Source: Patellaria atrata CBS 101060 (Eukaryota). From it: DNA of 64,000 bases. Numbering within the stretch: the stretch's first letter is position 1; each line of letters begins with the position of its first letter. Both the position numbers and the translations under genes were made by a program. Shown here piece after piece: positions 28,580 to 58,905 of this stretch. The notes beneath the pieces were generated by a model. That model saw only the letters and a list, made by a program, of their open reading frames with translations. It had not been told where the DNA came from and made no database searches. The DNA is taken from positions 1,215,550-1,279,549 of the forward strand of contig MU006094.1 of NCBI GenBank assembly GCA_010093705.1, given 5' to 3'.

Positions 28580-31500
28580 CTACTCCACCTCTTTCCACAT
28601 CGCCTCTAACTGATACGCCCTCATCATATCCCCCGCATTGTGCGGCCGCATATTCATCGCATTATTAAACATCTCTGCACCCTGCACACCACCCGAACTC
28701 GCAAACCCATATCCAACATTACTATTTCCATAATCGTATCCGCTCCCTCCTGCCGCAGACAATATCGCATCACCACCTTGCATCATCAGTCCCGCGGAGA
28801 ACATACTCATCTGGGTCATCATCCTTATCCGACCCATTGCAAGGATCTGCTTCATCTCAGGTATGACCTGTAGATATATGTCGGTTCTGTGCTTCACGGC
28901 CGCTTGGAAGAAATCCCAGTCGTCGTTTGCGCAAGCGGTACGCCAGTGTGCCCGTAGCTTACCGTACATGTGGCAGACGCCGTTGTCGACAGAAGGTTTG
29001 TACTGAACTTTATCTGCAAAGCGGGTTCCGGTCATGACTTCTTCATAGCAGGACAGACAAGCGGTGAAGTAGTCCTTGGAGTCACCATAGAAAGCTCGTC
29101 CACTGACGTGTTCGGAACGTGGACAAGGTGGTAGATTAGCGTATTTGCGCAGAGTTATGGATAGAGGGGAGAAATTGTTGGTAGTAACGGCTATTTGAAG
29201 TTTCTCCATATACAACTGGAATCTCTGCATCTTTGGATTCAAGTCACACATCCGTGCGCTTCCTGGGGCGTAAGTGACGTCCTTGAAGAAATGGGCGAAT
29301 CCAAGTGGCTTTATCACTCCCGTATAGCATGCTAAACAGATATCGAAGTTCTCACACCCTTCAGCTAATGTGTACCACTTATCCCTTTCGGTTGCTTCAT
29401 GAGAACATTGACTATTGGCCAACACCCTAGCACTTTCAAGAAAGATATTAAAGTTCTTTTGCTCGATAACCTCGCTCCAGGCTACGCATATCGGTGGCTG
29501 CCAGAAAACGCAAGCCCATGTGGTCCCCTGGGGGAGTGTATCCGTCCGTAGCTGGGTAAACTGCGAGGTGAACTCCGTAAATATGATATTATCTGAGTAA
29601 CAAGTCTCGCATATTGCTATATTATCGATATGTTGAACTGGTCCAAACCATTTCCGTGAGTTAGGATCGACGTGTTGAGATCCAGTACACTTTGGTAAAC
29701 AGGCACGGTCATTCAGCGACCGAGCAAAAGCCGGCCAGGAATTCTGCTTTGCGCATTCCTTCAGTGCTCTATCCACAAGCTTAACTCCAAACTCACACGC
29801 CAGAGGTGTTGGTTTGGAGGGGTCTGGGTGGCCTGGCTTGAAGTATGGCTTGAAATTTGTTGGAGCTATCCTATCCTCGTAGCAAGCTTGACACGCTGTA
29901 AATCTGTAATCAAGGCCTTCAGTGGTAGTGTACCAGGTCCGCTCCGAAGCAACCAACTTAGGGCATTCAGGGATTTTCGGGCGAGACTCCATGAAAGTCT
30001 TCAACTCTGTATCTGATTTCGACTCGGTAGTTTTACTCCAAAGTTGAAGCATTCGCGGTGTTTTGAAATAGCATCTGGTAACCGTGCCCGAAGCCATAGT
30101 TCTACCTTTGAAGAGATTACCATACGGGCTACGGTATATGTAATCATTATAGCACTTCGAACAAACAAAGAAGCCAAGGCATTCCAGATGCGTGTACCAG
30201 ATACCTTCGAAATCGGTAAAATCTCCTTCCGGACAGTACCGTAGAACATCTCGAGGTGCCTCAGCATCGGCATGGGGCCCTGGTACGGGGAATTTTTGAG
30301 GTGCTGGTTTCGTCGACTGTTGAGCGTTAGCACTAGAAAGTTTTTGAGTCGCTTCTGGTAAGCGATTAGTAGCCGGAGGTGGTGATGGAGGATGAGCAGG
30401 TAATTCTGCAATAAAGCTTGGGGGAGACGCTACAGTTTGCAACGGAGTATTAACATTTACTATAGGCATGCTTGGATATTGGTCAGAGTGGGCTGAATTC
30501 GGGTTGTGGGGTACCGGAGGCTGTTTCCACTGCTGTTGAGTTTCATATACCTGTGGATTCATGCTTGAATCATTCGGTATGCCGAGAATCCCCTGTTGTC
30601 CGACAGGGTTGGGTGTGCTGGGCGTGCTAGGTGTACTTCCAACTCTTCTGCGGGGTATGAGATGATGTTGCGGAGTTGGTCCTTGGACTGGAGGGGTATA
30701 CATAGGATACCCAGAATTTGGTGAGTGGTGAGTCTGTTGTAAGTTCTGAATGCCTGAGCTTTCTGGGCTAAGGGGAGTTGGTTGCTGCCATTGCTGCTGC
30801 ATCTGAGAAACATGCTGCTCAGGATTTACGTTATTTAACATCACAGGATCGTTCTGTTGATGATTTAGTATTTGTGGATCCCCTATGATTGAATATGATG
30901 CACCAAGCGGTTCGTGGTGTTGTGCTTGGGCCAAAGGAGTTTGCAGATGATACACTACAGTGCTTGGGGAATAGTTCTGGGACCAAGTTTGAGCTCCTGG
31001 AGTCTCCGGGCTGGTGGAAAGCTGCTGCAACTGCTGCTGTGTATACGGAACTTGTGGTTGAAGAGTCTGATTGCCCCCTGCCTGGTGCTGCAGGCCTAGT
31101 GAGGTCTGTGAACTTCCCATAATAGGGGGCGATCCAGGAGATGGCTGAGAGTTTTGGGTCTGATGGTTGATATTCATCGCAGAGAGACCATGCTGTAACT
31201 CCGTTAAGGGTCCCGAACTTAGTGATGATGCAGGAGCTTGCTGCCTCTGTTGCTGGGTTCGATGTTCGGGCAGTTGCTGGTTGATGTTCTCCGGATATGG
31301 GTCTTGTTGTTGGCCGTAGCTTACCCGTGAGATAAGCGGAGATGCAGTGGGTGCTTGAGGTCTCGTCGTTGGCGGTTGATGGTTTGTACCCACGTATGCC
31401 TCTTGTTGAGGACGTTGGCTTGGGGCCACGGGAGTAGTTTGAGAACCGGTTACGAGTGGCTGGTTCATTGCACTATTCATATATGAGTTCTGTTGTTGAC

Positions 31501-32413
31501 CATATAGGACCTGTTGGGCTCCTCCAATTGATGGAGATCCAGGGATGGGTGGTTGCCATTGGTGTTGAACTTGGGATGCTTGTGGTTGATGGTTTATATC
31601 AGTCACATTTTGACTTTGGTGTTGTGCAGATGTTGCTCCAGAGCTTGACGATGATAAATCTGGTTGTGGGGTATGAGATTCTGGTGTTTGATGACCTGAA
31701 TTAGTTGTATGTAGATGCTGTTGTTGCCCATATGGTCCCTGTGGAGGTACCGAACTTAGAGGAGAGAAAGGTGTGGGCGGCTGCCATTGCTGTTGGACAT
31801 GGGAAATAGGTGGTTGATAGCCTGTATTATTTACTGTTGAAGCCGATAGTTGGCCATATACAATCCCCGAGCTCTGGGAAAATGCGTCTGGCGATTGGCT
31901 ATCAGATATCTGTGGTTGGTTTCCCGTATTCGTCACAGGTTGGCTTTGATATTGACCATACTGTGATCCAGGGCTTGGTGATGATACAGGAGCTATCTGC
32001 TGCCATTGTTCCCCTTGATATAATTGCTGCTGATACTGCACCTGTTGTCCATTTACCGCTGGATATGGTGGTTGCTGGGTAAACTGTTGCGGAACCTGCT
32101 GTCCAGGGGGAGGACTGGAGTATGCATACTGTGGCTGAGAAACTTGCTGCCACTGCTGTTGGCCAGGCGATTGATATGGTGGGTTAACGTATGAAGGTGC
32201 ATAAACTTGGGGCGTTGAAGTGTAAGAACTATACTGTTGCTGCACTGGAGGGTGTTGGGATGAAGACACCTGATATTGGCTCTGGGCAGCGCCAGACGGG
32301 CCCTGCAGGCGATTCCCAACTTGCCCAAGTGTTTGCGTTGCTGACGCCGCAAGCTTGGTTGCTTGCTCGCGCCAGTTGGAGAGGCCAAACTTGGACTTCT
32401 TACTGAAGTCCAT
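28580..32413 (-). CDS. 1277-aa protein: Q/P-rich disordered N-half plus five Cys-rich repeats
   Basis: Uninterrupted ORF with repeated W/F-Y...CxxCY...C modules in the C-terminal half. Confidence 0.85.
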   Translation of the reverse strand: MDFSKKSKFGLSNWREQATKLAASATQTLGQVGNRLQGPSGAAQSQYQVSSSQHPPVQQQYSSYTSTPQVYAPSYVNPPYQSPGQQQWQQVSQPQYAYSSPPPGQQVPQQFTQQPPYPAVNGQQVQYQQQLYQGEQWQQIAPVSSPSPGSQYGQYQSQPVTNTGNQPQISDSQSPDAFSQSSGIVYGQLSASTVNNTGYQPPISHVQQQWQPPTPFSPLSSVPPQGPYGQQQHLHTTNSGHQTPESHTPQPDLSSSSSGATSAQHQSQNVTDINHQPQASQVQHQWQPPIPGSPSIGGAQQVLYGQQQNSYMNSAMNQPLVTGSQTTPVAPSQRPQQEAYVGTNHQPPTTRPQAPTASPLISRVSYGQQQDPYPENINQQLPEHRTQQQRQQAPASSLSSGPLTELQHGLSAMNINHQTQNSQPSPGSPPIMGSSQTSLGLQHQAGGNQTLQPQVPYTQQQLQQLSTSPETPGAQTWSQNYSPSTVVYHLQTPLAQAQHHEPLGASYSIIGDPQILNHQQNDPVMLNNVNPEQHVSQMQQQWQQPTPLSPESSGIQNLQQTHHSPNSGYPMYTPPVQGPTPQHHLIPRRRVGSTPSTPSTPNPVGQQGILGIPNDSSMNPQVYETQQQWKQPPVPHNPNSAHSDQYPSMPIVNVNTPLQTVASPPSFIAELPAHPPSPPPATNRLPEATQKLSSANAQQSTKPAPQKFPVPGPHADAEAPRDVLRYCPEGDFTDFEGIWYTHLECLGFFVCSKCYNDYIYRSPYGNLFKGRTMASGTVTRCYFKTPRMLQLWSKTTESKSDTELKTFMESRPKIPECPKLVASERTWYTTTEGLDYRFTACQACYEDRIAPTNFKPYFKPGHPDPSKPTPLACEFGVKLVDRALKECAKQNSWPAFARSLNDRACLPKCTGSQHVDPNSRKWFGPVQHIDNIAICETCYSDNIIFTEFTSQFTQLRTDTLPQGTTWACVFWQPPICVAWSEVIEQKNFNIFLESARVLANSQCSHEATERDKWYTLAEGCENFDICLACYTGVIKPLGFAHFFKDVTYAPGSARMCDLNPKMQRFQLYMEKLQIAVTTNNFSPLSITLRKYANLPPCPRSEHVSGRAFYGDSKDYFTACLSCYEEVMTGTRFADKVQYKPSVDNGVCHMYGKLRAHWRTACANDDWDFFQAAVKHRTDIYLQVIPEMKQILAMGRIRMMTQMSMFSAGLMMQGGDAILSAAGGSGYDYGNSNVGYGFASSGGVQGAEMFNNAMNMRPHNAGDMMRAYQLEAMWKEVE

Positions 32414-33055
32414 CCTTCACAGTTATCGTGAAATGATCATAGTCGAATCTCGAGAGACTTCGGAACAATGATCTTTACTACTTTCCCGTTCGAAGTTTTA
32501 CGAGTTCCCCGTCCGGTGAAGCGCCTTCAGCTGCCAAGGGAATGGCTGGTGCGCTTCGTTCTAGACTATAAATCTTCATATTCATCAAAGTTCCTATTTT
32601 TTCAGAATTGTATACTTCGTACCTATAGCAGCAAGATTTTGCCTTGTTCGACTATATGTAAGACGATTCCGGGAAGGTCCAGGAAGCGGATCTTTAACAT
32701 CAGACGTGTATTTGCTTCTCTAGCACCAGACGATAAGGAACAGGTAAGTCAATAGAACTACAGGGGAAGGCGTATCGAGGCGCACTCTATAGGACTATAA
32801 GGTACTGGGTATAGTTCTATATTCGTTCAGCCGGGTCTATCTAACGTAGAATTCCTGATTTCTCCGTTTCCCATTTCTCGTTATCATTTAAAATCGTAGT
32901 CCTCTCCTTTTTAGTCCCGTCCAAAGCAATAATTCGCGATTTACGCCATCATAAAGATCCCTTCCCAAGAACTTAAAATATCCGGACTCCCTGCTGGATT
33001 TTGGCCTGAACTAGCAAGGCCAATTCGAAATGAATAAAACATCTCCAATTCAATC

Positions 33056-34433: not shown

Positions 34434-35015
34434 TTTAGAAGGTTAATTGTAACATCACAGCTCTCGGGTGAAGTGTAAGTATGATGTTGATTCAGAATAC
34501 AAGTCCAGCCCAGCGAGATGGGGTGTCTCGTGGGGGCTAGTAACCAGGATCCAATCGCAGATCTATGGCACAAAATCCTACTATTATTAGTCTCTGATGT
34601 TATTTCAGCTATTACCATCTCAGCTTTTGGTGGTGTTGCGAGAATGGGATCATCTGCACGCGAGCGTCGACCCCTGTCTGTCAGTTAGTCCTTCGGATCT
34701 TAGAGACTCCGAAACATAGCCACTGAGCCAAGGAATATAGAATTCGATCGAAACCTAGATTTTAAGCTTACTTAACACTGCAATCGACGGGTGACGTAGC
34801 TAGGCCACCAACAGTCCACTAAATCCCTGCAATCCACCAACTCTTGGCGAACGTTGTCGATTCAAGGTCAAGGCCCCGAACGTTGACACCCTGTCTCCTT
34901 TGTTTCAAACGATGCAGCCACATATCCTCGAGGCTGAATACTCTCGATTTGAAATCATTGTAGCCATTGATGCCACGCAGCATGCTCAGCAGCATACCTA
35001 AGGGTATCTTGCTTC

Positions 35016-36067
35016 CAGTGATGGCCGTGGATTGGATCTGGACTGGATCGACCCCTGATCCAGATCCAGTCCAGGTCTTGGCCTCTAATCCAATCCAAAT
35101 CCAGTCCAAATCCATCAAATCCATGATTTTTTGTATGAGGAATCCGTTCCTCTATTCGATAGGCCCGTTCGAAGTGCTTGAGTATAGGTGTTCGTCCGTT
35201 TTGAGTACCTACTAACACTCAGCTATCCCGGGGCGATCGGGATGATTTTAGAGATTTTATGGATCTAGATTGGCTCGTACGTAAAGTCCTTCTTGATATC
35301 AAGACACAACGTACAGTAGAAATACGAATTCTTATTGACCTCGCTAATAATCTCGTAGCCTTTTGACCATATATGCGACGTCCTCTTCTTCTTCCGATCT
35401 ACCATTGTAGCCCCCGAGCCCTTTAAATACCACTTGCTGCGGATCCGTATTCGTTCTGGGGGGAGGTGGGGTGAGGGATCTCGTCGGAGGACTCTGAGGA
35501 TTCGATATATTCAGGAAATTGATGGGAAGATTCGCCACCGCTCTCAGCATCACCAGCCGGACCTTCCTCCGGCTCTCTAGTCGAAGATTCGGCTGTAGCC
35601 TGAGTATGCTGAATCTTCGACCCCTTCTGACGACGAGGTCTTTTGGTAGGCCGAAGAGCTTCTGTATCATCCTCTTGAGTCTCTCTAAGCTTCTTCGATG
35701 GCACGGCAGCCCGGGCAGACGAACGAGTAGTAACAAAGCGGTTCATATCAATTAGAGATGAGATAGTTGGTATACAATAGATTTAGGAATTTTGAAGATT
35801 TGGTTTGGGAGATTTACAGTCAAAACTCAAGCAGAGAGCACCATATGGCTGATGCTCTGGCCTACTTCCCCCATTACATTACCCAAAACAACACCTACAA
35901 CACCATTTTTTTTAAGATATCTACAACTATAATATGGATCTGGATTTCCTGGATTTTTTGAGCATCGAATCCAAATCCAATCCACGACTAGTCGAATCCA
36001 AATCCACGTCAAATCGCGTTGAAAATCCAGTCCAGATCCACCTGAATCCAATCCACGGCCATCACTG
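35016..36067 (-). mobile_element. Non-autonomous hAT transposon (1052 bp, internal deletion derivative)
   Basis: Perfect 22-bp TIR CAGTGATGGCCGTGGATTGGAT. 8-bp TSD CTTGCTTC at 35008-35015 and 36068-36075. Subterminal ATCCAA/GGATT repeats. Remnant ORFs 35344-35746. Confidence 0.95.
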
Positions 36068-36434
36068 CTTGCTTCTTGTGCAGCTTTTTGTCGAGAGGCT
36101 CTAGAGCCGTATCCTTGGTTGGCTTTGTTCCTGTATACTCTTACAGTACTAGACGTAGTACAGTAGTAGCGGCAGTGTTCATCTTCAACCATATCCAACG
36201 CCGGAAGAGGGTTCGAAAATGGGCTCTCAAAGGCACTAGGCATCCTGAATCAGGGGGCAGATTTTGGTCCTGAAGGCTAAGCAACGGATGGTACGCATCC
36301 GATGAATAAGCTCATTGAGAGAGCTCTGGCATTAGCATACTTATACACATCAAGAACACGTGTCTGTGCTTCTTCATTGACTTGCTTGTTACTTTCTCCT
36401 AACTCCAGGATTCAACCCACATTTCGCCGCAACC

Positions 36435-37014
36435 ATGTCTGGTCCATGGACAACCTCCACACAACTGGTCGAGAACCCGCTAGATTCAACTCTGCCAGGC
36501 TACTTATCATTCGATCTTCTAGATCATCTTGATCCGGTAGAACCCGTACTTGATATCACGCCTGGCACACTCAGTATGCCAAGCGATACAACCTTCGACT
36601 GGTCTAGCGGCATTGATCCTACCCTCCTACTGTCTGAACCGGATGCTTTCGTCATCGAAACACCCCCAGGAGATGACAATACTTCCAGCAAACCTGCAGC
36701 CGACGAGCAAAGCCTCAGAGAAGCTATACTACAGCTTGGACACAGCATGGAAGCGAGGCTAGCGCAGATAGAAGATAGCCTAGGGCTAATGGGTCAGAGA
36801 CTGACAAAAGTCGAAGACGCCAAAGAGACACAGGATACTGAGTACGTTGACACTTCCCTCTGTGCACGTAAGTTCTTCTGGCTGACAGTATGAAAGAATG
36901 CAACAACGTAAGGAGCAAATTCGGGCAGAGTCGAAGAAATTGCTTGATGACATCCGTGAGTATCACAATCTCATGAATTTGACAGCCAAACAATTGGTTG
37001 GGCCAGTCAAATAA
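36435..37014 (+). CDS. Small hypothetical coiled-coil protein
   Basis: ORF 36435..36893 with probable intron 36842..36896, stop at 37012-37014. Confidence 0.55.
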
Positions 37015-37367
37015 GCTTAGGGTACTATTCCTCAATGTAATTACCATAGAATTCGGGTTGATTTAGCTGGGTGGATCGTTGCAATGACAACTCTGTTTCT
37101 TCCAATGCTCATGTCGAATGAACACTCATATTTTCTCTCTTTCCAGTTCGACATCCGAGCAGGACAGCGTGGCTCAGGGCCCTGAAAACGGGACAAGATG
37201 CTCGCAGAGTGGCTCGAGGGCCCAAAATCGGGTAACCTTTGTGGCATGAAGTGGTGTGCAGTAGTAGTATAACTCTTCGAGATTGGACTTGCCCTTGGTT
37301 CACGAATATTCACAATTCTTGTGCCCAAAGAAGGTTCACCATCAGAACCAGAATTCTTCACAACATC

Positions 37368-37721
37368 ATGCTGAGTTACAACAAGCTTAAGAGTCGCCCC
37401 ATAGCTAATACTGACTTACCCCCAAAGAACAATGTTAGTCAAGCTTCACGCAAGCAGGGCACTCACCCGGCGAGCGATACACCTTCAAAAAGGATAGAGT
37501 CGGCAAAGAAAATGCCTACCCCAGATATTTCTATCATACAACAACAAAGGGAATGGGAGAACACTCAGCTCAGGAAAGAACTTCAGTACCAACGAAGAAA
37601 GCATGGTGCCAGCATGTATTTACTGGAAGAGGTTCGACTTGTGGTCAAATCTCTTCAGGAGGCACTTGTCAATTTCGAGAAGCTGAACTCTGAATCTGAA
37701 TACGAAGTGACGGATGAGTGA
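37368..37721 (+). CDS. Small hypothetical coiled-coil protein
   Basis: ATG 37368 within ORF 37239..37721; ENTQLRKELQY...LLEEV..VVKSLQEAL heptads. Confidence 0.6.
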   Translation: MLSYNKLKSRPIANTDLPPKNNVSQASRKQGTHPASDTPSKRIESAKKMPTPDISIIQQQREWENTQLRKELQYQRRKHGASMYLLEEVRLVVKSLQEALVNFEKLNSESEYEVTDE

Positions 37722-38385
37722 ACTTAGAAGATAGCACATCAAATGAATTCGTGCAACTGTTCAGTCCAGTCCACATACAAAAATTGCATATCTTGACTTT
37801 GCTTTGAAGTTGAATTAAGCCCTGCATGGGAGGCGTTGTTTGGGAGGCGTTGTTTCGAAACATGTACGATCTGGCAGTTGACCTGCAGACAAGGACCCAT
37901 GCGACAGGAAGCAGGGGCTGAGCCGCAACGAGCCAGGATCCGGGTTTTGTCGATCGCTTACGTAGTCCATTGCGCAACTTCTGGCGAATGGAAGCAATGT
38001 ATTTACATCCACCGCCCCTTTCTATTGTTGGGCTGACCACAGGCTACCTGCCCTGGTCGGATGGAACAGCTCACGCCCATTTCCAATCTGGAGCGTGTCT
38101 GGGCCCACAATCAGGACCTTGAGACCAAAATCGGGGTACATTTGGAACGGAAGCTTCCCTTGCCGGCAGTCGATCACGATTGGACACATCAACTCTATAT
38201 CTCATGAAAATGGTTTATTTATGTTCACACCTCAACGCGAAATGGTTTGATTTTTAAACAAAACATCTACCTTCAAGCCCATTCGTTGCAGTTACAAGTA
38301 ATGGTGAATCATATGCAAGCGCAACCGGTAAGTTGACATTCTGCTGCTGGGCCAGGCACAGCGTACTGATATACACTGGTAGTCT

Positions 38386-38910
38386 ATGGCTCTCCCTTCA
38401 CCAAGTCCAATGGTCCAGGATGTTCTCCAAAAACTCAACTCGATTGGAGCCGACTTCGTTTGGATCTTTGCCATATATCAAGAACAGACGCGCATCATCA
38501 AGGCGTTGAAGGATGACATCACCAACATCTCAGCCTCTCACGAACTGCTACGCGAGACATACAATCTTGCAGAACAGGAGATCACGTCGCTCAAGTCTCT
38601 ACTATACAATAGCGGTGACGATGCAAGCGATGGTTACACGGAATCTTCTTCTTAAAGCTCCACTGAAGAAATGATGAAGGACCAGCAGGAGGAAATATCC
38701 TATCTCAAAGCGGAAAGCCGCAGAGTTGAACGCGAACATGAGGTTGGAATGGCTGGAATGACTGAAATCACCCGAAAGTATGAGGAAGCACTAACGCACG
38801 CAAGTGCTCTGGTTGCTGCCGGTGCAAAGAAGATAGCCGAGCTTGAAGCGAAGGGCGAATCTCAAGTCAGCGATCAAAGCCATGAGATGAATGAGAGTGA
38901 AGAGGCTTAA
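38386..38910 (+). pseudogene. Coiled-coil protein gene with one in-frame stop
   Basis: ORFs 38386..38655 and 38671..38910 share a frame, separated by a single TAA. Confidence 0.6.
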
Positions 38911-39461
38911 GGGGTGTTTTTTTAAGCTACATCGTTAGCCTAGATCTCTTTCAATATCATTATCCCGCGTCAACGTCAATAATAACCAGGAATAACAAAC
39001 ACGTGAGAATACGTGTGGATGCACTCTTCGAGCCTTTGGGCTCTCTTCAAGTCATTGGCGCCCAAGCACTTCGATCGCTAGGATCATGATTCAAGTTAGA
39101 GCATATTTCACATTCCAAAGCGGTGAACGGAGTGATATTGGCATGGACGGAAACCGAATTGCCATGATGGCGCAGTAGGTTTCAGAAATTCGCTCTTGGA
39201 ATGAATAACGTGATGTCGTAGGACGGAAGCCCGGGGTGGGTTGGGGAGGGGGGCCAAAAGTGGGACTTTGGAACTGACTATGGCATCCATCCATTGTGAT
39301 TTTATTATAGATCCCTCTGGTAGAAAAGAAGTGTGGTTACGAATCTTTTCCATTCACGGCAGCTCCGACTGCAAAAACTTTGACCATGGCCAACTCGCCT
39401 GTTGAGCAAGACATGCACAATGTACGGCTTCAAGCGCAGCGCAGGGAAGAGCACTACTAAT

Positions 39462-39956
39462 ATGGCATAGGAAATCTCTAGGCAAGCAGCAGCACATTTA
39501 CCGTCTCCTGTGGCTGCAATCATGAACGGATTGCGAGCTGCAGTTGAAGAAGCAGAAGGGGAAATTCGGCACTCCACGTTCTCTATGAGGGCCTCTTGCG
39601 AGCAGAGAGCAGACCAGAATTCGCAAGCCTTGCAAGAACAGGCTGACAATGCTCAACGGACTCATTTCATCCTGCGGGAAAGGAATCAAGAAGTGTTGAT
39701 GATCAACTCCATGTTGCGCAGCGAGCTTGCTGAGGTGCGGAGAGAAAATGAAGCGTATAAACAACAACTCAAGCTACTCGAGCAAGAGTGTCGATCTAGC
39801 GATGATGAATCAGCTCGAAGTCTGGCTGAACTGACGGATGCCACCACAGTGCTGGCAAGTTGCATTGCGTTGCCAGCTCAGAAGAAGAGGGCTGGTATTC
39901 GCAAACCAAGGCTGAAGCAGAGAGCAACAGGCAGGGAGCGAAGCGTGAAGAGGTAG
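39462..39956 (+). pseudogene. Coiled-coil protein gene, TAG at codon 3
   Basis: ATG GCA TAG GAA... is in frame with ORF 39510..39956; could still be translated from a downstream ATG. Confidence 0.55.
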
Positions 39957-41090
39957 AAAGTCAAAGAGTATTTGGAATACCATTTTGATGTCTAAATGAC
40001 AGATAGAGAGGCTTCTGCTTCGAATGTCATTGTTCTCACCACATTGTCGAGCGTGCAGACGTTGGTGGTTGCATTAAGGTTTGTAAGACTCCGCGCGCAT
40101 TGGCCAAACATGTTTGAAACAAAACGTGGCCAGTAAGCCACGATCGTCGCAGGGCCAGTGGTTCGTGCATCGGGAACTTTCAGATCCGCATCACCCCGCA
40201 AGACGGCTAAGCCACACTCGTTGGATCTACAGAAATGCATGGAAAACGGCTAGAACTTGCTAAAATTGGGACATGAACATTGACTATCCAATGAAAGTCT
40301 CAAGTTTAGCGCCCCAACCCGATGCTTCGCCGGGGTTCAATCTCGCTGCAGCGGAGGCCATCCTAAATTGTTTCTCGTCCAGGACGAAGGTCGATCTCCT
40401 CCAACAATGTTCTTACCTAACGTTAGTATTTTTTTGACAGTTCTGCAAATCTTGATGCTCGTTTCTTGCCTGTACAGACTGTTCTCTGTACTAGAGGATG
40501 CCATGCCCCCCAAGAGTATCAGAGCGCTCTTTGTAGGTCTTGACGTGGCGAAGATATATGTATTGAGAATCTACTCAAATGTACCGGTCTAGCATTTCCA
40601 ATGATCCTGCATTTTTGTCCGCAACCCTTGCGGTATGGTCAGGTTTTTTGATGGATGGATCTCTCAAACTGTCTGGCGCATACCCGACTGGAACTGTCAT
40701 GGTAGACGAAGAGATGCTTTTAGATTGGCCGAACTCTCCGCGCTTCTGACCAAAAAGAGAGTCATGGAAAGAAAGTTTCTTAGTGTGTTAATTGAACGAA
40801 TGGATTGACGTGTGCTGCCTGTTGTCTGCCCGGTATGAAGCGTGAGGGTTCGAATACAAATTCGAGAGAGTAAGATTATCCGCAGATACGTACTCAGCTG
40901 GTAGGAATGACATGATCTTCTAGGAAGTCGAGAGAGCAACCATAATTCCAACAGACACTGTGATTCTTTCTGGAGTCTCTATTGTGACCTGGATTTGCAC
41001 CCGAAATTGTTGAAGAGGAAGAGCAAGGGACTGTGTATTTATAATTTCTGCAGTCAGACAGCTCCCAGTGTTTCATCATTCGGAAGGGAG

Positions 41091-41108
41091 GGTCCCGAAA
41101 ATGGTCCC
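41091..41108 (+). promoter_or_regulatory. CArG-like cargo motif copy GGTCCCGAAAATGGTCCC upstream of the MADS-like gene
   Basis: One of 10+ related copies in 36.2-48.4 kb; TATAAG at ~41161, ATG at 41210. Confidence 0.5.
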
Positions 41109-41209
41109 TCAAGGCGGTGCTTCCTTCCAGATAGTCAAAGAAGTCGAAGGCCCTGTGGAGTATAAGTTCACTGAAGCAGTCATTGAGATGGCTCACCGCC
41201 CAAACAAAT

Positions 41210-41705
41210 ATGCCTTCTCAAAAGCCCAGCCTTCATAAAAGACTAAACAAGAAGAAGAAAAGGCGATTCGGACCTTTAAGAGGCAAATGCCGAGAGTACG
41301 CAGAGCTTCCTGGAGTTGAGCTAGCGCTCTTCATTGCTTTCGAGAAGGTGGACAGAAACAACAAAACGAGAAAAGAGTTTTATTCTCTTCGATCTAAGCG
41401 TAACATCCCCTAGTTAAGAAACATAGATGGCATTGTAAGTTGTACATCATCGCCGTTGCCGTTGCCTTGGCTGACTGGTGCAGCTATCGGACGACTTGAA
41501 CAAGAACGAGTTGCTGGATGAGATGGGGAGCGACATTGAGATGCCTTGTGAAGAGCGAGATGATGAAATGGAAGGGGATGAGAAGAATACCCTTGTTGGT
41601 AGCAAATACCTGGATTTGCTGCTGGGCTCAACTGGAAATGGGCCAGTATTTCCTCCTCTACCTGATCTTGATCTCGACTTGATTTGCGATATCATGTCAT
41701 TTTAG
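41210..41705 (+). pseudogene. Divergent SRF/MADS-box-like small transcription factor with acidic tail, one nonsense codon
   Basis: KKRRFGPLRGKCREYAELPGVELALFI...FYSLRS resembles MADS core KRRxGLxKKAxELxxLxGxxVALII...LYxFS. TAG at 41411, phase-0 intron 41435..41483, acidic exon 2. Confidence 0.6.
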
Positions 41706-41833
41706 CTTACTAGACTTCAACTAGCATCGATGTATGTAATTCTTTGGCTATTTGAACACGTAAGAATGTCCCGTGTATGTCTTTTGATGTTTTTCATTTC
41801 TTTACTCAGTAATTGTAGCAGGCTAACAACAAC

Positions 41834-42424
41834 CTAGATAGCACCATTCGTGTACGCCCCTCGCTTCCTTGACTGCATTGCATACATCATTTCTGTCAGT
41901 GTCGGCTTCGTGGAAAGATCAACACGAGGTGGCTCTTCAAGGATAGTACAAAGTCGACGCGGCCTTTCCGTTCCCAAGTACTCGCATCTCGCCAGCTCGC
42001 CAGGCAATTCAATCCGACCCGTGGCTGAGCTACCTCCAGACAGCTCAGCAACCTTAATCTGGGGTTCCGCCTCTGGAACAGACTCGCCATAGTGATAATG
42101 GTTCACGTTTATGACAAGATTTTCTGGCTTAGACATATCCTTAATAAGAACTTTGAGTCTTTCGCACCCTGGTCTCCGGCAGATGATTTGATCTAAAGCT
42201 TCAACCGCGTCCATGCGCGTACGAGGTCTTCTGCTTTTGCCGCAGCGAGAGCATGCCGGTAAGTACACAAGTTGTTCGCTTTCTTGATGTTTTTTAGCAT
42301 CTTTCACTTTCTCCTTTGGCATTGGTAGAGGATGGTCTCGATAGTACGAGGTAGATGAACGGCTTTTTCGGCTCATTCTGCTTGCAATGGAAACGCAATC
42401 TCGGATTGCTGTCAAATTTTGCAT
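41834..42424 (-). CDS. Hypothetical protein with CxxC...CxxxxC zinc-binding motif
   Basis: 196-aa ORF: CSRCG...CRRPGC, INVNHYHY, AELSG/IELPG motifs. Confidence 0.65.
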   Translation of the reverse strand: MQNLTAIRDCVSIASRMSRKSRSSTSYYRDHPLPMPKEKVKDAKKHQESEQLVYLPACSRCGKSRRPRTRMDAVEALDQIICRRPGCERLKVLIKDMSKPENLVINVNHYHYGESVPEAEPQIKVAELSGGSSATGRIELPGELARCEYLGTERPRRLCTILEEPPRVDLSTKPTLTEMMYAMQSRKRGAYTNGAI

Positions 42425-42540
42425 TCTGGTATGTATGTAAGTGACAGTATCGTGTCGAACATTGTGAGCTCTGGTTCTTTATGGAAGCGCGTGGATGGAC
42501 TTCAGGGGGTTCAGGTTTTGACCCCCTCTGAGCAAATACT

Positions 42541-42584
42541 GAAATCGGGCTTCAATTTCAATATAGGGCCCGATTTCTGGACCC
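42541..42584. promoter_or_regulatory. Inverted pair of cargo motif cores in the divergent promoter of 42424(-) and PLP(+)
   Basis: GAAATCGGGC (42541-42550) and its perfect reverse complement GCCCGATTTC (42568-42577), then TATATAAG at ~42592. Confidence 0.5.
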
Positions 42585-42646
42585 AAGAGCGTATATAAGT
42601 TCGAGTCCACCTGCTATCGCTCAAGATCCCATCGTCCACGTTAATT

Positions 42647-44767
42647 ATGAAGCACTGTCAGCACACGAGCTGGCTAAGCCTTTGCTCTGAAGGCAACGAT
42701 ACGTACCTGGTGGTCTCCGATCGCCTTGATACCATTAAAACTCATATTCCTGAGCCAGAGTCCCAAACACCAAGCCTTTTTGTGCTGATTGGCAATAGAG
42801 CGAAATCCGTCGCACTACGCGAGCTTTTTGGAGCGAAGAGAAACCAACGGTTTCTTACAAAGCGAGTCCCAGGCGAAATACACCTTCATGTTGAAGCATC
42901 CAGTATCTTCAACGAAAGGCCTCTACTTATTGCCGATAGTGATATCCCAGCAAAGTCTTTGAGGGCCAAAATCCCTTCTACTAAGTGTCATGAAACCACG
43001 AAGCAGATTGTCCGGAGACCTGGCTCACTCGGCGAGATATCTAGTACCATCTACTCTCAGCTGCTTCAACCATTTGTTGACGTGTTCTGTTTCTTCGCAG
43101 ATGACCTAGGCGGTTTCAAGCAAGTTGCACATCATCTTGCTACGTGGCTTGAGCAGGTTCAAGAGTCGACAACTCTCAGGAGTACTCGCCCACGGGTGGT
43201 CATAGTGACCGAAAAAATCCCCTCAAGCGTGGAAAATGAGAAAGAGGCAAGAAAAGCCTTTTTGTGGCTGCTGAGCGAGGAAACGAAAAGAGATCTGTTT
43301 GAACAGGTTTCGGCAATTGAGATAATTGCACTTTTCCCAGCCGGCGCACTCTCTGTCAATGCTCGCCACAGACTGCTCAAGGAACGTATCATGAGTGGAT
43401 CAGACCAAGTGCGGAAGAGTAGGGAGCAGTCTAGATGTCTGTTCTCTGTGACTCACTTTACTGCGTTCCTTGCGAGTGCATGTGAACAATTCTCACGGGT
43501 TGCAAATGAGCCATTCGATTTTATCAAGGCTTCCCGAGTGGACAATCCGGCACCAGAGGATTTGGATGAGCATTTAGCTAACCTAATGAAACACATTAAG
43601 GATTCTGGAGATCTCACTGCGTTTGCAGCTCCTACCATCGCATCTAGTCTTTTGCTGGATAGCTACCCTCCCAATTCACACTGTAAGTCGTAACGCAGTG
43701 GCCAGTTTGCAAACATATTAACAAATCGATAGTGTTTCCTCCGGAGAAAGTGATGGACACTCTTTATAAAGATTTATTCCCAAAAGAGAGGGTTATCTCC
43801 TTCGCGGATTCGAAAGATGTCATTCTCCGGAGTGGCTTCATTAACCTGGTCCGTACCCATTTGATCAGCTTCTTTGAGCAGCTAACACACGGTCCATCAT
43901 CGGCCGCAGAGATTCACTTCGGCAATCTGAATCGATTTAAATACCATTGGCAAAATATTCAAAGCAGCAGCACCTGTCTCTGCTGCCTACGTCGAAGACC
44001 ACAGTATAACCTATCATGCGGACATATCCTATGTGAGAACTGCGTTCTAATCTTTGGTGACGTTGACGAACACGATCCATGGATGTACAAGATATATCAC
44101 TGTTTCCTTTGTGGAGAAGAAATGCCCGAAGGAGTGAATGTTAAAATCCATCCTCCAACAGCTGGAGTGGGAATTCTCTGCGTTGATGGTGGGGGCGCTC
44201 GCGGCGCGTCGTCCCTTAGGATAATGAAGCGTATTCATGATCGAATCGGTTTGCCAATTCCCTTCCAGCAATTCTTTAAAGTCGCTTTTGGGATCAGTTC
44301 AGGTATGTTCCTGCCTATTTTGCTGATCGACCTACAGCTAACCTTATCCAGGAGGCCTCATCGTTCTAGCTATGTTTGTCAACGGTTGGGGCATTGAAGA
44401 GTCTACTGACACTTTTGAACGACTCGCCAAAGTCGCGTTTACGCCTCGAAAAGTGTCTAAAATCCCGATCTTCCGTAACATCATTGAACTTTTGATATCG
44501 TACTTTGCTGACGGACTCTATGCTCCCGAAAACATTGAAGCGGCGCTGAAACAGGTTTTCGGGAATGACAGAAGCATTTTGGATGTCTCGCATGCGACAA
44601 CTACAGGAACACGTATCGGGCTTCCTGTGGCCACTGTTGGTGGTACGCCGTCTCGCCGTATCTTCACGAACTACAATGGTGTGGGGGAGCGTGTTGAAGG
44701 TCAAGGTACGTCTCACGCGATGCAAATGAACCAAGCCCTGATCAGAGTAGAGGACCGCATCGTAAAC
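42647..44767 (+). pseudogene. Patatin-like phospholipase (Starship PLP type), 3'-truncated
   Basis: MKHCQHTSWL start, RING-like CLCC...CGHILCENC...CFLC, DGGGARG and GISSG (GxSxG). Introns ~43683-43732, ~44303-44351, ~44707-44751. Homology stops ~44767, before the SAAP/DGG motifs. Confidence 0.85.
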
Positions 44768-45133
44768 TGCTGTCAAATTTGTCTGCAGACTTGATTCTAG
44801 AAGCTAAAGAACATCTCCATGACCTAATCCAGAGAGCTGAGTAAATCTTAGACGATTTGGAGCTCGCTCAGGATATTTCGGCATTCTCACAGCACCAATA
44901 CACCCTCTCTAAAGGTTGCAGCACTTCACAGTCTCACGATCGGACCTCAATCTTCAAAACCTCTTCCGGACAACACCCCGATGTGAGGAGATGTCAAAAT
45001 ATGCCGAGCTGAGAGATGCCTCCCAAAGTATTGTTGAGACACAAAGATTGGAGATGCAGTACGTTAAGCCAAGGGCCGTGTACATTAGGAGGCCTACCAC
45101 ATCGGACAGCTCTCAATAGGGAAGGGTAGGGAA

Positions 45134-45201
45134 GGGACCAGTTCTGGGACCTTGGCTGCGTACAAGATGACGATCCGGCTTGTAGTCCTGAAATTGGTCC
45201 C
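45134..45201. promoter_or_regulatory. Inverted pair of cargo motif copies
   Basis: GGGACCAGTTCTGGGACC (45134-45151) and AGTCCTGAAATTGGTCCC (45184-45201), then TATATAT. Confidence 0.45.
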
Positions 45202-46695
45202 CTCTGGTTCGATGCTATATATCTCTCTTATTAGACATGCTGTTCCTCCTAGGAAATAATTTCTGCCAGGTTATGCAAGATCTTCTCTACTTTGAATCTC
45301 AAATAGAGCGGAGGTTTCTCACTACAAACGCAGTCTACAGATACACATGCGATAACACAAACTACGGTTTCAGATCTGGAGTGCCACATCTTTTGTTGAT
45401 CGTAAGAGTAAGAGGTCTTGCTGACGACCAGATTGGTATTATACTCTAATCTGCCGGGAAGCCTATTGAGAATATTTTGCCTGAAGTCCCTAAGCCGCGA
45501 TATAGCGATAGAACATGGAGGAACTCGAGATGGCACATTATACGGCGAATGCTCTTATGCTTATATGCGTTTTATATATATGGAGACATGCAGCGTATCT
45601 GCCGGCTCACAACAAGACCTCTACATGTATATATCCTCGGAGGTATTATAGGAAGGGTGCTTGACTTGCAGAAGCGGTTCTTACTAGCGAACCCGGATAA
45701 GCTAGAAGATCGCGAACCAGATATGCTGGAAAAAGAGATCATGTTGTAGGTGTAACTTAGGCAGTTCCTTATCTTCAGCCGTTTCGACTTCGTCCATAGA
45801 CCCACAATTCAAGTTTGCCTTCCCTTCTGAGACTTCGATGTAACATCTATCTGTTAGACAGTGGAAGGAAGAAGTGATAGTTACTATCTAGCGATCTGAG
45901 AGCTTTCTTATATAGTCCAAGCGTGCAAGGGTGATGTCTGAGAGTGACACTATCACCAACAGTGATTGTATCACGAAGTATAAACATCACAGTCACATAG
46001 GTGAGGGTGTCCTATTCAACACTATCCCGGTGCAACGAGCCACCCGGTGCGGCGAGCCATATCCCTCGGTACATTATCCCAAAGGCAGTCGCAACAACGC
46101 AATTCTATCTATACTCCATCTATTCCTGCTGAATACTATAGCTTGGTATCTTTGAGTGATGTGGACACCTTCAGACTTAAATATCACATTTTTAATCATT
46201 GCTCATTTGCCCGGTCTACACATAGCATCATTCTGAAAAGATCTTCGAACATTCTCGTCACAGCTTCGCCAGCATGCTCTTGTAAGGTTCAGCGTCTCTG
46301 AATGGCGCTGTGTTCGAGATTCCATGTTGGTAAGTTCATGGTCGGAATTATAGAGAGCGATGGGAATTATAAATCGATGAGTGGTGTTGTTGGGGGGACC
46401 AGTTTTGGGACCTGTTGCCGAAATGCTTGTCTATGGAGGGAGGGTTTCAAAGTGCAACCTTATGTCAGTTCGAGAGCTCACAGCCTTCTTGGAGACACAA
46501 TTAGATTTAAGATACGCGATGAGAGGAATCTATTACGATCATCCACAACAGATCACTTGTCGCTTCAGACTTCTACCGTCTAACTCTACTTTAGCTAGCT
46601 TCTTTCTTATCCCAAGAATCATGCAGTGTTATTGCCTCATACTGCTCACAAAGATTGGATACTGAGGTCGTAGAGCTACATGTGGTCGCCCCAGG

Positions 46696-46896
46696 TTAGT
46701 TCTGAGCGAGGAACTCTGCGAAAGATTCGCTTTCTTTTCCAGCTGGCACGCAGATCTCAGCATCATAATCCATCTGCATCTCGTCGAGTCGTTTGCTTAA
46801 TGCCATATGTGCGATGAGGTTTCGCAAATGTGATTCTTTTTGTAGTTTCTGTTCTACAAGGTCTTGAAGATATAGCATCTGGAATAGATATACCAT
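46696..46896 (-). CDS. Small ECM13-like protein (KL..E..LR.LI.H...L motif)
   Basis: 66-aa ORF QKLQKESHLRNLIAHMALSKRL; cargo motif copy 100 bp upstream (46996-47013). Confidence 0.55.
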   Translation of the reverse strand: MVYLFQMLYLQDLVEQKLQKESHLRNLIAHMALSKRLDEMQMDYDAEICVPAGKESESFAEFLAQN

Positions 46897-47218
46897 TGCT
46901 TGAATGTTCAGTATGAAAAATTTTGGTTATCTCTCTGTGAGATTTGAAGTGCATCTCGTCTGACTTTAAAGCATTTGAGCCGGCGAGCTGCGAGAGGACC
47001 CATTTTCGGGACCTTTCGCTCGCAACAGAACCGGGCCTTCAGAAGTCGTTGTGTGCAGCGATGCATCTCCGCGAAGTCCCTTACACGGTTAGGAGGATCA
47101 AACTCAAGACTTCGAAGATTGACTTACGAACTCGTCATGTCATTGTGCCGGTTCTGCGGTCACCCAAAAACTGCCTCTATCGAGTGCAGAGGGATCAAAT
47201 TTTCATTTATCTCATTGA

Positions 47219-48261
47219 TCACAACTGGCCATGCCACCTTCTCCTTTCAGCCGACCACCCTGTAGGTTCTTTCAACAGGAACAACATTGTAGATATCAGC
47301 TTCGTAAGAGCTGCAGTGTAGAGAGCAATCGCTAAATCGACAGTCTGAGTAATGCATGCACCAGTAAAGCTGCCTACAGCCAGACTGAGCAACGAAGCTA
47401 GTCGGTAATCCCGAGCGCTGTTGAAACCTTTATTCAACTGTCCATTTGCCAGAAGGTTGATATAGGTTGATGTTGATACCGATGTCAATTCGGATCTGGA
47501 GAAGTCTCGAACTGTGACGAGTTGAGACGCGTGTAACAGGCTAGAGCCTAGTGGTATGAGCGCGCCCTGCATCCGAAGATCAGCCAGTAATATTTTCCTC
47601 AAACCTGCCTTCAGACTCTTCTCTTCTTCTTTATCTTGATTGTAGATAGCATCTGGACTAGATAGTTGGAACACAATTACTAGAGGCCGCTCACAACGCG
47701 GAGGAAAATGATAGGAAGGATAAGATGACATAGACAGCTGGGCTACCTGGGTCAATCTTAAATGACTGGTAGATGACGCCGGCGGCCCAAATGAGGGTTG
47801 CTTGTGTCAAAGTAGAAGCTACGAGCCATATTCGACGTCTAATACTACGCAGCACTCTCTCAATTTGAGCTGTAGTATATGCGCCGGTAATGAAAAGACA
47901 AAAGCAAACACTGCTGTTACCGTAGTGAAAAGCTTTAGGTGCAAGTCCTGTTGCTCCAATAGAAAGGTATTGCATGTTGCTGATTTGGTTCGAAGTGGAG
48001 CAAGAGAAGGTAAGTAACTGATCATCGGATTAAAAGTGAGCGTCTGTTAAGGGTACCCAAACTCACCACCGAAGCATCTTGTATACCAGTAGCAAGAGTG
48101 AATGTTAAGAGCCCAAGCTCAAGGAATATATTCTCTTGAATATGGTCATTGAGATGTGCCCAAAACGTACTTCTTCCATAAGAGACCGAAGACCTAAGTT
48201 CTCCTTCTTTAAGATTAGTTTCTCGTGATGTGTCGGCGGAAGATGAGTTAAGGATGTTCAT
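47219..48261 (-). pseudogene. DUF1275/YoaK-family membrane protein gene disrupted by a solo LTR
   Basis: LTLATGIQDA, SNQ, WLVASTLTQA, SASQLV...ELTSV.TSTYINL, RDYRLASLLSL.VGSF.GA. Frame restored on LTR removal. Confidence 0.75.
47532..47695. mobile_element. Solo LTR, family A (164 bp), inverted relative to the 9886 copy
   Basis: TG...CA ends. TSD ACGCG at 47527-47531 and 47696-47700. About ten differences from the 9886..10048 copy. Confidence 0.92.
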
Positions 48262-48660
48262 CTAAGCCTGTGGGCCATTCTACATGGACCTTGACAGGAG
48301 TTAAAGATGGCGGGACGCGATCCGTCAAAGTAAGTTAGTGTTCAAGTTCTTCTCAAGTGGAAATTGGGACCCGTCTTGGCCTCAGTGGCTCGTTGAGTAT
48401 CAGCCTTGGGCAGTATGGCACCGTAGCATGTTGATAGCAAAGAAGCATTGTATCTACACTGTTATACTCGTAGGCACAATCCGAACCAGATAGCCATGCA
48501 GTGGCCGAAAAATATCAAAACAACGACGGGTGCAGAACGCGAAGAGCCGGTGTTACGCTATAACAAGAACAGAATCGTACTCTAGGCATCATCACCAATC
48601 TCATTCCCGTCACTCTCTGAATCGATCTCTGCAGTACTCAAGTTAGAATATGGAGTCGTT

Positions 48661-52313: not shown

Positions 52314-54215
52314 TTACTCTCCTTCAGCAAGCCTTTTCCTGGCCCTCTTCGATACGCCTCGGCCGGTAAGAGATGTATTGGGGGTGGTGTCTCTTGCGTC
52401 GTCCGTGCTGTGCCCTTGTGGTTGAGAATCGGGCTGACTCGATGCTGAAAGATGATGACGCTCGAGGTCTTGTGAAAGGCCAAAACTTTGGGAAAGTTGG
52501 GGAACGCTGAAATCCAGATCAGCCGGTATTTTATCGATAGCTGAACATAGCCGTTTGAAATGGCTCGGCATCCATATGTCGTAGACGTTCTTGGTGAACT
52601 TGTATGCCGTCCATTTCTCCTTGCCATCCAGGGCTGTGAAGCTGAACTCGTGTATTGGATGACGGTAGTACTTGGTGTCTTTCCCATCAATGACTGGGTA
52701 GTGTCCATAGATTCTCACTGATCTGTGATCATGCGAGATTGAGAAGGCGAGAATCTCCCGATGAAGCTCCATCTCACGGCCAACGAGTCGAAAGAGTTCG
52801 ACGGTAGCTCTTACAGCAAGTGTCATGCTGTGGGCATTCTGTCGATCCGCGATATCGAGCGCTGCAGCACCGCACTTTACCTCACAAGTAAGGAACGGGA
52901 AGTACATGTAGTACGTGGCCATGAAGTACGACTGATCACCGGAGATGAAGTTGCCAATGAATGGGGCAAGCTTGTCGAGCTGCTCTTTGCTGAATGCTTC
53001 CCGTTTGAATCCCACCGAGAAGTCCGGCTGTGGACGCGTCCCTGTCAAGGGAAATGAGTTATTCCAGCCTTCGTTGACACTCTCAGCTAAAATCTTGAGG
53101 GATTTAGCACCGCGTACAGCCAATACTTCCGCCGAAGGAACGATGAGCTGTGAAACATCGCGGATTATTCTTGCTTCATTCTTGTTCCGTATCATTTCGC
53201 AAGTGTCTTCGAACAGTTCATCGCAGAATAGTGAATCGTTGGGGATAGTTTGTCTTGCATCAAGCAAGTGGAGATAGCTTTTCTTGCTAGTCTGCGTGAT
53301 TCCTAAGGCAGGTTTGCCCATAAAACTCCCCTTTGTGGCGAGTAAAGTTTCGTAACGTGCATCTTGATAAGGTGCACTTTTGACCTCTCTTGGCTTTTGG
53401 TCGCTTGGTGTTGTAGAACTCGGCGCTATCGAAGTCGGCGCAGTCGCAGCTGGATCAACAGAGATCAATCCAGACTGCCTTCGGCGAAGGGAGGCGGAAG
53501 ACTTCTGCTTGCTAAGTAGATGGCTCATATTCTTATCGCTCTGTTCGGTGTATCCCTGGGGCCACTTGTGGTGCTTTGTCCAATAGAAAACCGGATCTTG
53601 TCCGTCCTCATCAACTTTGCTTGCTTCCTCTTCCTGACCAACTGAATTGCCAACGACAGATTGATGTCGTCGTGTCCGCTTTCGAGGAGCCTGAGCTGAG
53701 CCCAGCTGAATGGGATCTAAGGTGTCTATCCGTCGCTTCTTCCCTTCGGGTTGCAGGATAGGTTTCCGAGGTCGCTTGGCTCGTCTGACGTCGGTGGTTT
53801 GCTCGGCTTCGGTTTCTCGAGAACGCTTCCGCGTCGCCGCTTTCTGGATAGAGGATACGGTTGCTTGATTGCGATTGCCAGCTCGGAAGCGTAAGCTTCT
53901 TCGTGGCGAATTGCTCCTAACAGCTTGATCCTATGTATTGTTAGATCGCTTTGTAACAACCAATGCCATCACACACTTGCCTCCTGTTGCTTGTTGCCCG
54001 TCTGAGATGTAGACTCTTCTGGAGTCGCCGACGTCTTCACAATGTTGATGTTTCGACGGCGTGTAGGGCGTTTGCGATTCTCGAGATGCACTTCAAGGTG
54101 TTAGAACATGCTCCGTGTACCCAGACACCGATGCGCATATATGCATACCTTTCTCCTCTGAGGGTGGCATGGGCAGTCTCTCCTGGACGGTTAGAGGCTT
54201 CGAACGGACAGCCAT
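52314..54215 (-). CDS. DUF7924-like, PD-(D/E)XK-like fold protein
   Basis: PQPDFSVGF, YFPFLTCEVKCG, ADRQNAHS, FSISHD. Exons 54215-54149, 54090-53981 and 53930-52314 give an open frame; second intron is GC-AG. Confidence 0.8.
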
Positions 54216-58185: not shown

Positions 58186-58905
58186 GATGGGGAATGACTC
58201 GACTAGGAGGATGGGTGACTTCGAATATAGCAGGAAAGATAGAGTCTACAGCACTTAAAGTACTACGAAAAAGGAAGGGCTGAGATGCCGTGAATGCCAA
58301 GGCCGCCAACCGAACATGCATACTCCTCAGGTTGGACGAGCTGAGCAGCTGCGGTATGCCGGTTGGATCGAGGCCCACAACAACGAGGCTCGTAGCTCTA
58401 CCGTTAGCCAGCCTTGAAAAAGTAGCTCTGAAGCGCTGCATAGAGCAAAGTGGACTTGTGAAACCTACACATGGCAGTGTTGTGAAACCTGATCACCACA
58501 GCGCTTTGCCACATCAAGAAGACTGCCATAGCCGTCCTATTTGAGCGGCCATTGCGGTCCACATTCGGGCTTCGAGCAGCTTCATGGCTTGTGATTGATT
58601 GCCGTGTCATCGGGCGTCCGCAGGCGTCATTAATCGATGAGCAGATAGGAGACTTGTGAATGTGAGATTAAAGGTGTAATATACCTTATAGGGAGTCCAG
58701 GCGCTCCACTTCACCCGTGCCCCACACCCGCGGAGTGCGTCCTGCTGCCCAATGGACTGCATGTCCAGTCCCGAAGATTCTAAAGTGACTCCAAATGTTC
58801 AGCAAACATAGAATACCTCCCAGAATACAGCGCTAGCCTCCAATTGCACGCCAACATAGTGATGGTACACATCCCCAGGAGCCTTCTCAACATCGCGCGA
58901 CGAGC

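Follow-up and report, generated by a model that had tools for sequence, protein, structure and literature searches.

How do the cargo genes of a mobile element become expressed in a new host? A locus of the fungus Patellaria atrata CBS 101060 raises this question, because a short DNA word recurs there in the promoters of a gene cluster that appears to have moved between fungi. We analysed a window of 64,000 nucleotides (nt) of contig MU006094.1 (assembly GCA_010093705.1, forward-strand positions 1,215,550 to 1,279,549; coordinates below are those of the window). It holds a compact cluster of about nine genes, labelled A to H, at 36.4–46.9 kb, which are mostly without an annotated function; A, B, C, D and H are small and often coiled-coil-like. 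An initial annotation had proposed that an 18-base-pair (bp) CArG-like word lies upstream of most of these genes, that gene E encodes a MADS-like factor co-ordinating them, and that the whole is carried by a Starship element. Here we show that the word is real, and our data support its being a promoter-proximal element that is private to the cluster, as compared with neighbouring DNA, and conserved before orthologous genes. We infer that the word is bound by a protein, and that this protein is E. That a dimeric factor, most likely the product of gene E, reads this promoter element of a mobile cluster is our preferred reading, held tentatively and slightly more apt to prove wrong than right.

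Two known systems serve for comparison. The CArG box, CC(A/T)6GG, is bound by dimers of SRF-type MADS proteins such as SRF and yeast Mcm1, which are built by helix–helix and strand–strand pairing. AflR is the pathway-specific regulator of the aflatoxin cluster, which has shared promoter sites.

An 18-bp word concentrated in one cluster

Over 13 strong sites taken together, the 18-bp consensus is GGTCCC-RRAANY-GGKCCC, with C5, A9, G14 and C18 invariant and A10 present in 12 of the 13. The word consists of two GGNCC arms, 12 bp apart, with an A-rich centre between them, and these outer arms are its best-conserved positions. Motif-like 18-mers stand at all 12 of the coordinates first listed for it. 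The consensus then proposed, GGNCCYRAAAHYGGDHC, fared less evenly: it is exact at four of those places, and the copies at 36254 and 38121 depart from it by more than two mismatches. Four exact matches compare with 0.02 expected, and none of 100 dinucleotide shuffles reached four, so that the enrichment over shuffled controls, set as a test beforehand, is borne out. Allowing up to two mismatches gave 10 matches (3.19 expected; 1 of 100 shuffles reached 10), all within 37178–47013; at this tolerance none was found in 1–34.7 kb, a region earlier described as free of full copies. A simpler pattern, GGNCCNNAAANNGGNCC, had 10 matches with at most one mismatch against 0.86 expected, nine of them within 37–47 kb and the other at 14461.

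We built a scoring matrix from the six best window copies (Table 1); a low-threshold iterative refinement of it drifted into background and was dropped. Under their own matrix these six form a strong class of 24.6–29.2 bits, and a weaker class of 8–14 bits comprises the copies at 36209, 36253, 37178, 37218, 38101 and 39250. The 14.6-kb cluster contains seven matches of at least 14 bits and six of at least 17 bits, as against one and none in the 49.4 kb outside it. Examples of background outside the cluster are 30967, at 16.9 bits, and 55545, at 13.4 bits. When the next-best window matches were ranked in a hold-out, 35–49 kb, or 22% of the window, accounted for 6 of the first 14. For the half-site RAAAWYGGK, 8.83 occurrences are expected; we counted 19, a number that none of 100 shuffles reached. 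Of these, 14 fall within 35.9–49.1 kb, including one in an inserted transposon. Neither a longer DNA repeat carrying the motif nor paralogy among the open reading frames (ORFs) flanking it was found.

Several moderate matrix matches (30967, 30979, 31209 and 31430) fall inside the frame at 28583–32416 (−) and are probably due to its own internal composition. This frame, of 1278 codons, and another at 24851–27691 (−), of 947 codons, are very long and have no Pfam family.

Copies precede TATA boxes and start codons

At most sites the order is motif, TATA box, ATG, as had been claimed, with the TATA box 32–70 bp and the ATG 53–159 bp from the motif start. The genes downstream of the copies are unrelated to one another. 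The claim of a top-quality site in the promoter of the gene starting at 41210 also proved sound: the 41091 copy, before gene E, scores best in the window. The 42566 copy occupies a divergent promoter, from which G starts at 42647 and F, on the other strand, at 42424. The weaker copies before genes A to D have a consensus near GGGCCCAAAATCGGG. Among 40 listed of the approximately 2600 differences between the window and three related sequences (X3, X4 and X6), the only indel that falls in a motif affects one base, at 45134, and occurs in X3.

The word is conserved in orthologous clusters

A search with the E-family alignment yielded three metagenome loci, L001, L002 and L003. The last, 20.2 kb of a 258-kb contig, has the gene order H, A, B, C, D, E, F, G at 38–79% protein identity, and its DNA can be aligned with the window's across coding sequence and the E promoter alone. 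In L003 the window-trained matrix found four matches of at least 14 bits (0.23 expected) and three of at least 17 bits (0.013 expected), counts reached in 0 of 300 shuffles in each case. All five checked matches of at least 13.7 bits lie 92–142 nt upstream of an ATG that opens an ORF of at least 65 amino acids (aa).

Before E, the site stands at −119 in the window and, in all three metagenome loci, at −104, a TATA box following at −46 to −49. For F/G, the window's GGTCCAGAAATCGGGCCC corresponds to GGTCCGAGAATCGGGCCC in L002 (1384) and GGCCCGAGAATCAGGCCC in L003 (11915), each with TATATA about 55 nt before G. In L003 the B promoter keeps a half-site and the D promoter a weak site, and further sites at 345+, 2049−, 3414− and 10978− precede ORFs (at least 65 aa) outside the window's cluster. 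Upstream of the E relatives P0002 and P0017, on other metagenome contigs, the read-through ...GSRKWA..., which is a translation of the motif, lies about 105 nt before the start. The expected conservation upstream of orthologues is seen for E and F/G; for B and D it is partial, and C and A/H lack it. Beyond its cluster, L003 carries a BCS1-like AAA ATPase (15406–16899, −) and a C2H2 zinc-finger gene (19231–19830, −), neither of which has a counterpart in the window cluster.

These comparisons bear on the view that the word has no regulatory role and arises from chance or composition, or marks a site of recombination or chromatin marking. Two rearrangement breakpoints lend it some colour, since 46394 directly adjoins the copy at 46395–46412 and a GGACC at 44752–44756 lies 12 nt from the other; the weak copies, moreover, overlap background scores. 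Against this stand the shuffle and natural controls, the constant spacing from motif to TATA and ATG, and the retention of the motif across 40–79% protein divergence while the surrounding intergenic DNA is unalignable. We regard a word without regulatory role as very improbable.

Gene E, a candidate reader

The window ORF of gene E has 67 codons and ends at an in-frame TAG (41411–41413). The gene has an intron of the form GTAAGT...CTGAC...CAG, and reading through the TAG gives 148 codons, like the intact 148-aa protein P0010; spliced models of the family span 148–156 aa. HMMER returned nine relatives among 1.84 billion representative proteins (E values 6e-29 to 1.6e-4) and a word-indexed search of 90% clusters returned 20, with no Pfam domain on record for them. 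Tryptophan occupies the TAG position in 19 of the 19 relatives that reach it (of 21). Judged from these alignments, E is a real conserved gene and a member of a small family not covered by current domain libraries. Because all relatives reaching the position have tryptophan where the window has TAG, the window copy is, on the same comparison, broken by a premature stop, and therefore could not act as a normal regulator in this genome.

In the E protein a basic N-terminus (…RKRLNKKKKRRFGPL…) precedes a hydrophobic beta-hairpin, and the acidic tail closes with the conserved …LPxLDLDLICDIMSF. The prediction that it forms a dimer comes from modelling residues 1–92 of P0010, which scored 0.56 as a homodimer against 0.00 for the best of three controls, with contacts agreeing between runs by at least 81% and a partner pLDDT (predicted local distance difference test) of at least 62. 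The mark applied is reached by 21 of 30 proteins solved as same-chain pairs and 0 of 23 single chains; on eukaryotes it is reached by 17 of 29 pairs and 0 of 30 single chains, and by only one of seven pairs without an older solved relative. In the dimer model, strand 36–45 runs antiparallel to its twin and helix 19–30 packs on its twin.

Modelled in this way, as a basic helix and a beta-hairpin with helix–helix and strand–strand contacts across the predicted dimer, E would share the layout of MADS dimers. SRF-TF (PF00319) is also the sole Pfam family matched by more than one E-family member, in 2 of 20, with faint matches in the expected register that stay below threshold (best E 0.031). The match of P0007 scores 12.3 bits and places residues 17–45 on profile positions 14–41 of 48. 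The differences are substantial: the family reaches about 12 bits against a cut-off of 26, which 0 of the 20 members attain; E has a shortened counterpart of the N-terminal half of the MADS domain; and its helix is broken by Gly-Pro. The window ORF itself has no Pfam match at E ≤ 10, and PDB sequence searches with that ORF, two profiles and two single members returned no MADS protein. Two AF2 models were of low confidence, one (pLDDT 68) with helices at 8–18 and 23–31 and strands at 37–47 and 53–62, the other (pLDDT 57) with helices at 8–19 and 72–89 and strands at 36–47 and 53–63. Foldseek and VIA-align gave no MADS match for either (best Z 3.4 and 2.3); MEF2B appeared in Foldseek only at rank 31 (E 2.6), and the other rows were weak and unrelated. 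Since the members stay below the SRF-TF cut-off, profile comparison gives no warrant for placing E among the MADS proteins, and the earlier label of a MADS-like factor is unsupported as a statement of family membership; E may yet act on a CArG-like site in the manner of a MADS dimer.

Which protein reads the word?

E would be the likeliest reader because it is a small, predicted-dimeric, basic/acidic protein that always travels with the sites and has a fixed site in its own promoter. The main rival is a conserved host factor, such as the host MADS protein Mcm1 or another dimeric factor, with E just one of its targets. The geometry of the word speaks partly for this: the site is two-armed, and CC-N6-GG around an A/T-rich centre, as in a CArG box, is present in 8 of the 13 strong sites. 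Speaking against it, conservation is strongest in the outer GGNCC arms, 12 bp apart, and in most sites the centre includes G or C and so falls short of pure A/T. A universally conserved factor would allow the cluster to be found, as it is, in hosts of at least three orders; all six strong sites are retained in the window though E is broken; and no DNA-binding fold was recovered for E. Set against a host reader, 49.4 kb of neighbouring DNA with several host-type genes has no strong copy, and the fixed-distance site before E in all loci seen fits autoregulation. We consider reading by a host factor a serious possibility, although one more readily doubted than expected.

A lesser rival is that another cluster protein reads the motif, chiefly the Cys-rich F, for which zinc binding is possible. 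F has a CxxC...CxxxxC pattern, is conserved with the cluster (48–51% identity in L001 to L003; nine relatives) and shares the divergent promoter with its strong, conserved site; relatives of F lie on contigs with recorded lengths of 24024 and 10787, as do relatives of E. It carries no DNA-binding mark, being without a Pfam family and without a usable match in the protein atlas, and we think this reading improbable.

With E as the preferred reader, the mechanism would run as follows. A dimeric DNA-binding protein at sites just upstream of the TATA boxes would switch the cluster genes on together; E, at 148 aa, would supply a basic N-terminal helix, a twin-pairing beta-hairpin and an acidic tail. 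The best site lying in E's own promoter suggests positive feedback, and the premature stop in E together with a truncated G would mean that the copy of the circuit in this genome is decaying.

Several points weigh against this reading. The candidate reader is itself broken in the window, and its place within a syntenic block means that co-occurrence with the motif cannot separate a regulator from a target. The arms of the word form a direct repeat, position 3 of both being T or G, which a symmetric dimer fits less well. The weak copies preceding genes A to D have scores that background sequence also attains, and L003 keeps no motif before C or in the A/H promoter. The genomic control for motif density was limited to the approximately 49 kb of neighbouring DNA in the window. 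Fold searches with low-confidence AF2 models recovered no known DNA-binding fold for E, and the dimer score may stem from the model's memory of similar complexes.

Gene content of the cluster

Table 1. Positions of the motif copies, the cluster genes and the left limit of shared DNA in the window
Feature	Position	Strand	Details
Left limit of DNA common to X3 and X6	34605..34615	n/a	
Weaker motif copies (span)	36209..39267	36209+, 36253−, 37178+, 37218+, 38101, 38121+, 39250+	before genes A to D
Gene A	36435..36893	+	152 aa, no Pfam family; L003 orthologue 5347-5841 (42%)
Gene B	37368..37721	+	117 aa, coiled-coil-like, no Pfam family; L003 orthologue 6298-6621 (56%)
Gene C	38386..38910	+	two ORFs (38386-38655, 38671-38910); L003 orthologous stretches 7296-7814
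Gene D	39522..39956	+	144 aa, coiled-coil-like; L003 orthologue 8565-9008 (40%)
Strong copy GGTCCCGAAAATGGTCCC	41091..41108	+	119 nt before gene E ATG (41210); TATAAG 41161-41166
Gene E	41210..41705	+	exon 1 41210-41434, intron 41435-41483, exon 2 41484-41705
Gene F	41834..42424	−	196 aa, Cys-rich (CxxC...CxxxxC), no Pfam family
Strong copy GGTCCAGAAATCGGGCCC	42566..42583	−	divergent F/G promoter; TATATA about 10 bp to the right
Gene G	42647..44794	+	three ORF pieces: GTPase-like N-domain, RING-like finger, start of patatin domain
Strong copy GGTCCCAGAACTGGTCCC	45134..45151	−	
Strong copy AGTCCTGAAATTGGTCCC	45184..45201	+	TATATA 32 bp from copy start; ATG 45237
Strong copy GGTCCCAAAACTGGTCCC	46395..46412	−	abuts breakpoint 46394 seen against relatives
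Gene H	46696..46896	−	66 aa; L003 orthologue 5099-4926 (38%)
Strong copy GGTCCCGAAAATGGGTCC	46996..47013	−	117 nt before gene H ATG (46896, −); TTTAAA between

Pfam scans covered stop-to-stop ORFs of at least 70 aa, namely 104 of 104 in 22–44 kb, 109 of 109 in 44–64 kb and 55 of 98 in 1–22 kb, where the shortest were dropped. Among these ORFs, none in 33–49 kb matched a Pfam family except DUF1275 at 47222–48029. The DUF1275 gene carries a 169-bp insert (47527–47695) that is absent from X3, where 47526 is joined to 47696, and that has a 93% identical copy at 9886–10048; it is probably a miniature transposon disrupting the gene.

Gene G is cut short at about 44757–44768. It has 43 relatives among longer proteins (E ≤ 1e-10), most of them about 970–990 aa, the full length, and annotated PF01734; the closest, from Venturia inaequalis, is 91% identical. 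Its N-domain lies near GBP/Smg9-type GTPase-like clusters in the protein atlas, and the L003 orthologue has weak zf-RING_5 and Patatin matches.

Soil metatranscriptome contigs about 90% alike to the window lie on 38521–39912, 40657–41589, 43195–44639 and 44779–45598. We rejected them as evidence of transcription or splicing, since they also cover promoter.

A rearranged and probably mobile block

Contigs X3 and X6, from sequencing runs labelled as other organisms, match the window in order over a stretch that begins near 34605 and reaches at least 52000. X3 differs from the window over a 5784-base piece at 145 letters and 61 gaps, X6 over an 8664-base piece at 536 letters and 174 gaps. Beyond their common limit on the left (Table 1) both continue with one common sequence unlike the window, so that this point is either the end of an element or a rearrangement point. 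On the right, the shared DNA extends beyond 52 kb, and the element may reach beyond the window.

The window copy has itself been rearranged. Relatives continue gene G past 44757–44766 into other sequence, X4 and X6 hold 44768–45833 inverted next to 46394, and relatives have 165 extra bases at 45250; from the continued G and the inversion we conclude that the window copy is rearranged, with G cut short. Near the left limit, 35008–36075 holds a non-autonomous hAT-like transposon of about 1.05 kb, with perfect 22-bp terminal inverted repeats (35016–35037 and 36046–36067, beginning CAGTGATGG) and a target duplication of 8 bp, CTTGCTTC. X3, X4 and X6, in which 35007 is joined to 36068, lack it, and the ORF at 35827–36243 (−) lies mostly inside the transposon.

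Three named fungi, Microthyrium microscopicum, Verruconis gallopava and Patellaria atrata, have proteins sharing 94–98% identity with E (P0010, P0013 and P0020); the Patellaria atrata model consists of the window's own residues, with the part around the stop skipped. The carriers of near-identical E belong to three Dothideomycete orders, Microthyriales, Venturiales and Patellariales. Because identity is this high across orders in a gene without known function, the comparison points to horizontal transfer of the cluster between fungi.

The setting was earlier taken to be a Starship. Gluck-Thaler et al. 2022 (PMC9156397) list PLP, NLR/HET, DUF3723 and FRE genes as conserved Starship cargo and ask for at least three such genes before a 'degraded Starship' is called. 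Gene G is of the patatin (PF01734) PLP type given there, a HET-domain gene lies to the right of the cluster (55939–58245, −), and near-identical copies of E occur in different orders. Unlike Starships, the window showed no match to the DUF3435 (PF11917) captain, to DUF3723 or to FRE genes among the scanned ORFs. The PLP-type gene, the HET gene and the transfer signature are compatible with a Starship, but the window shows neither a captain, among the ORFs scanned, nor defined ends, and the Starship setting assumed earlier is putative.

Other genes flank the block. To the right lie a DUF7924 gene (52317–53930, −; E 4e-115) and a WD40-repeat gene (60862–62072, −), and host-type genes occupy 20–24 kb: a signal peptide peptidase, a mitochondrial L51/S25 protein and a pyruvate carrier.

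Discussion

Like AflR-type clusters, the locus has one word in most cluster promoters, including a divergent one, and an in-cluster candidate regulator with a site of its own. It differs in that its genes are not biosynthetic, comprising small coiled-coil-type proteins and a patatin-type protein, in that the candidate E is not a zinc-cluster protein, and in that the whole block appears to be horizontally mobile. A full-text literature search returned, at the level of listings and abstracts, no description of a promoter word or regulon common to Starship genes. A preprint (bioRxiv 10.1101/2024.06.28.601215) names a 'MADS-box transcription factor' among Aspergillus fumigatus Starship cargo.

A bolder form of the preferred reading is that the locus is a portable, self-contained transcription module that moves between fungal orders on a Starship-like element; its activator would be minimal and belong to a new family, which might be a drastically reduced offshoot of the MADS proteins, and would bring along operator-like sites of its own. 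We find this doubtful; if it were true, cargo expression would be independent of any host regulator.

If E does read the word, it adds a new small family of candidate DNA-binding proteins beyond current domain libraries. A private promoter word with a cluster-encoded candidate reader would then be a first concrete candidate for transcriptional control of such cargo by the element itself, and it would bear on how the cargo genes of giant fungal mobile elements become expressed in a new host.

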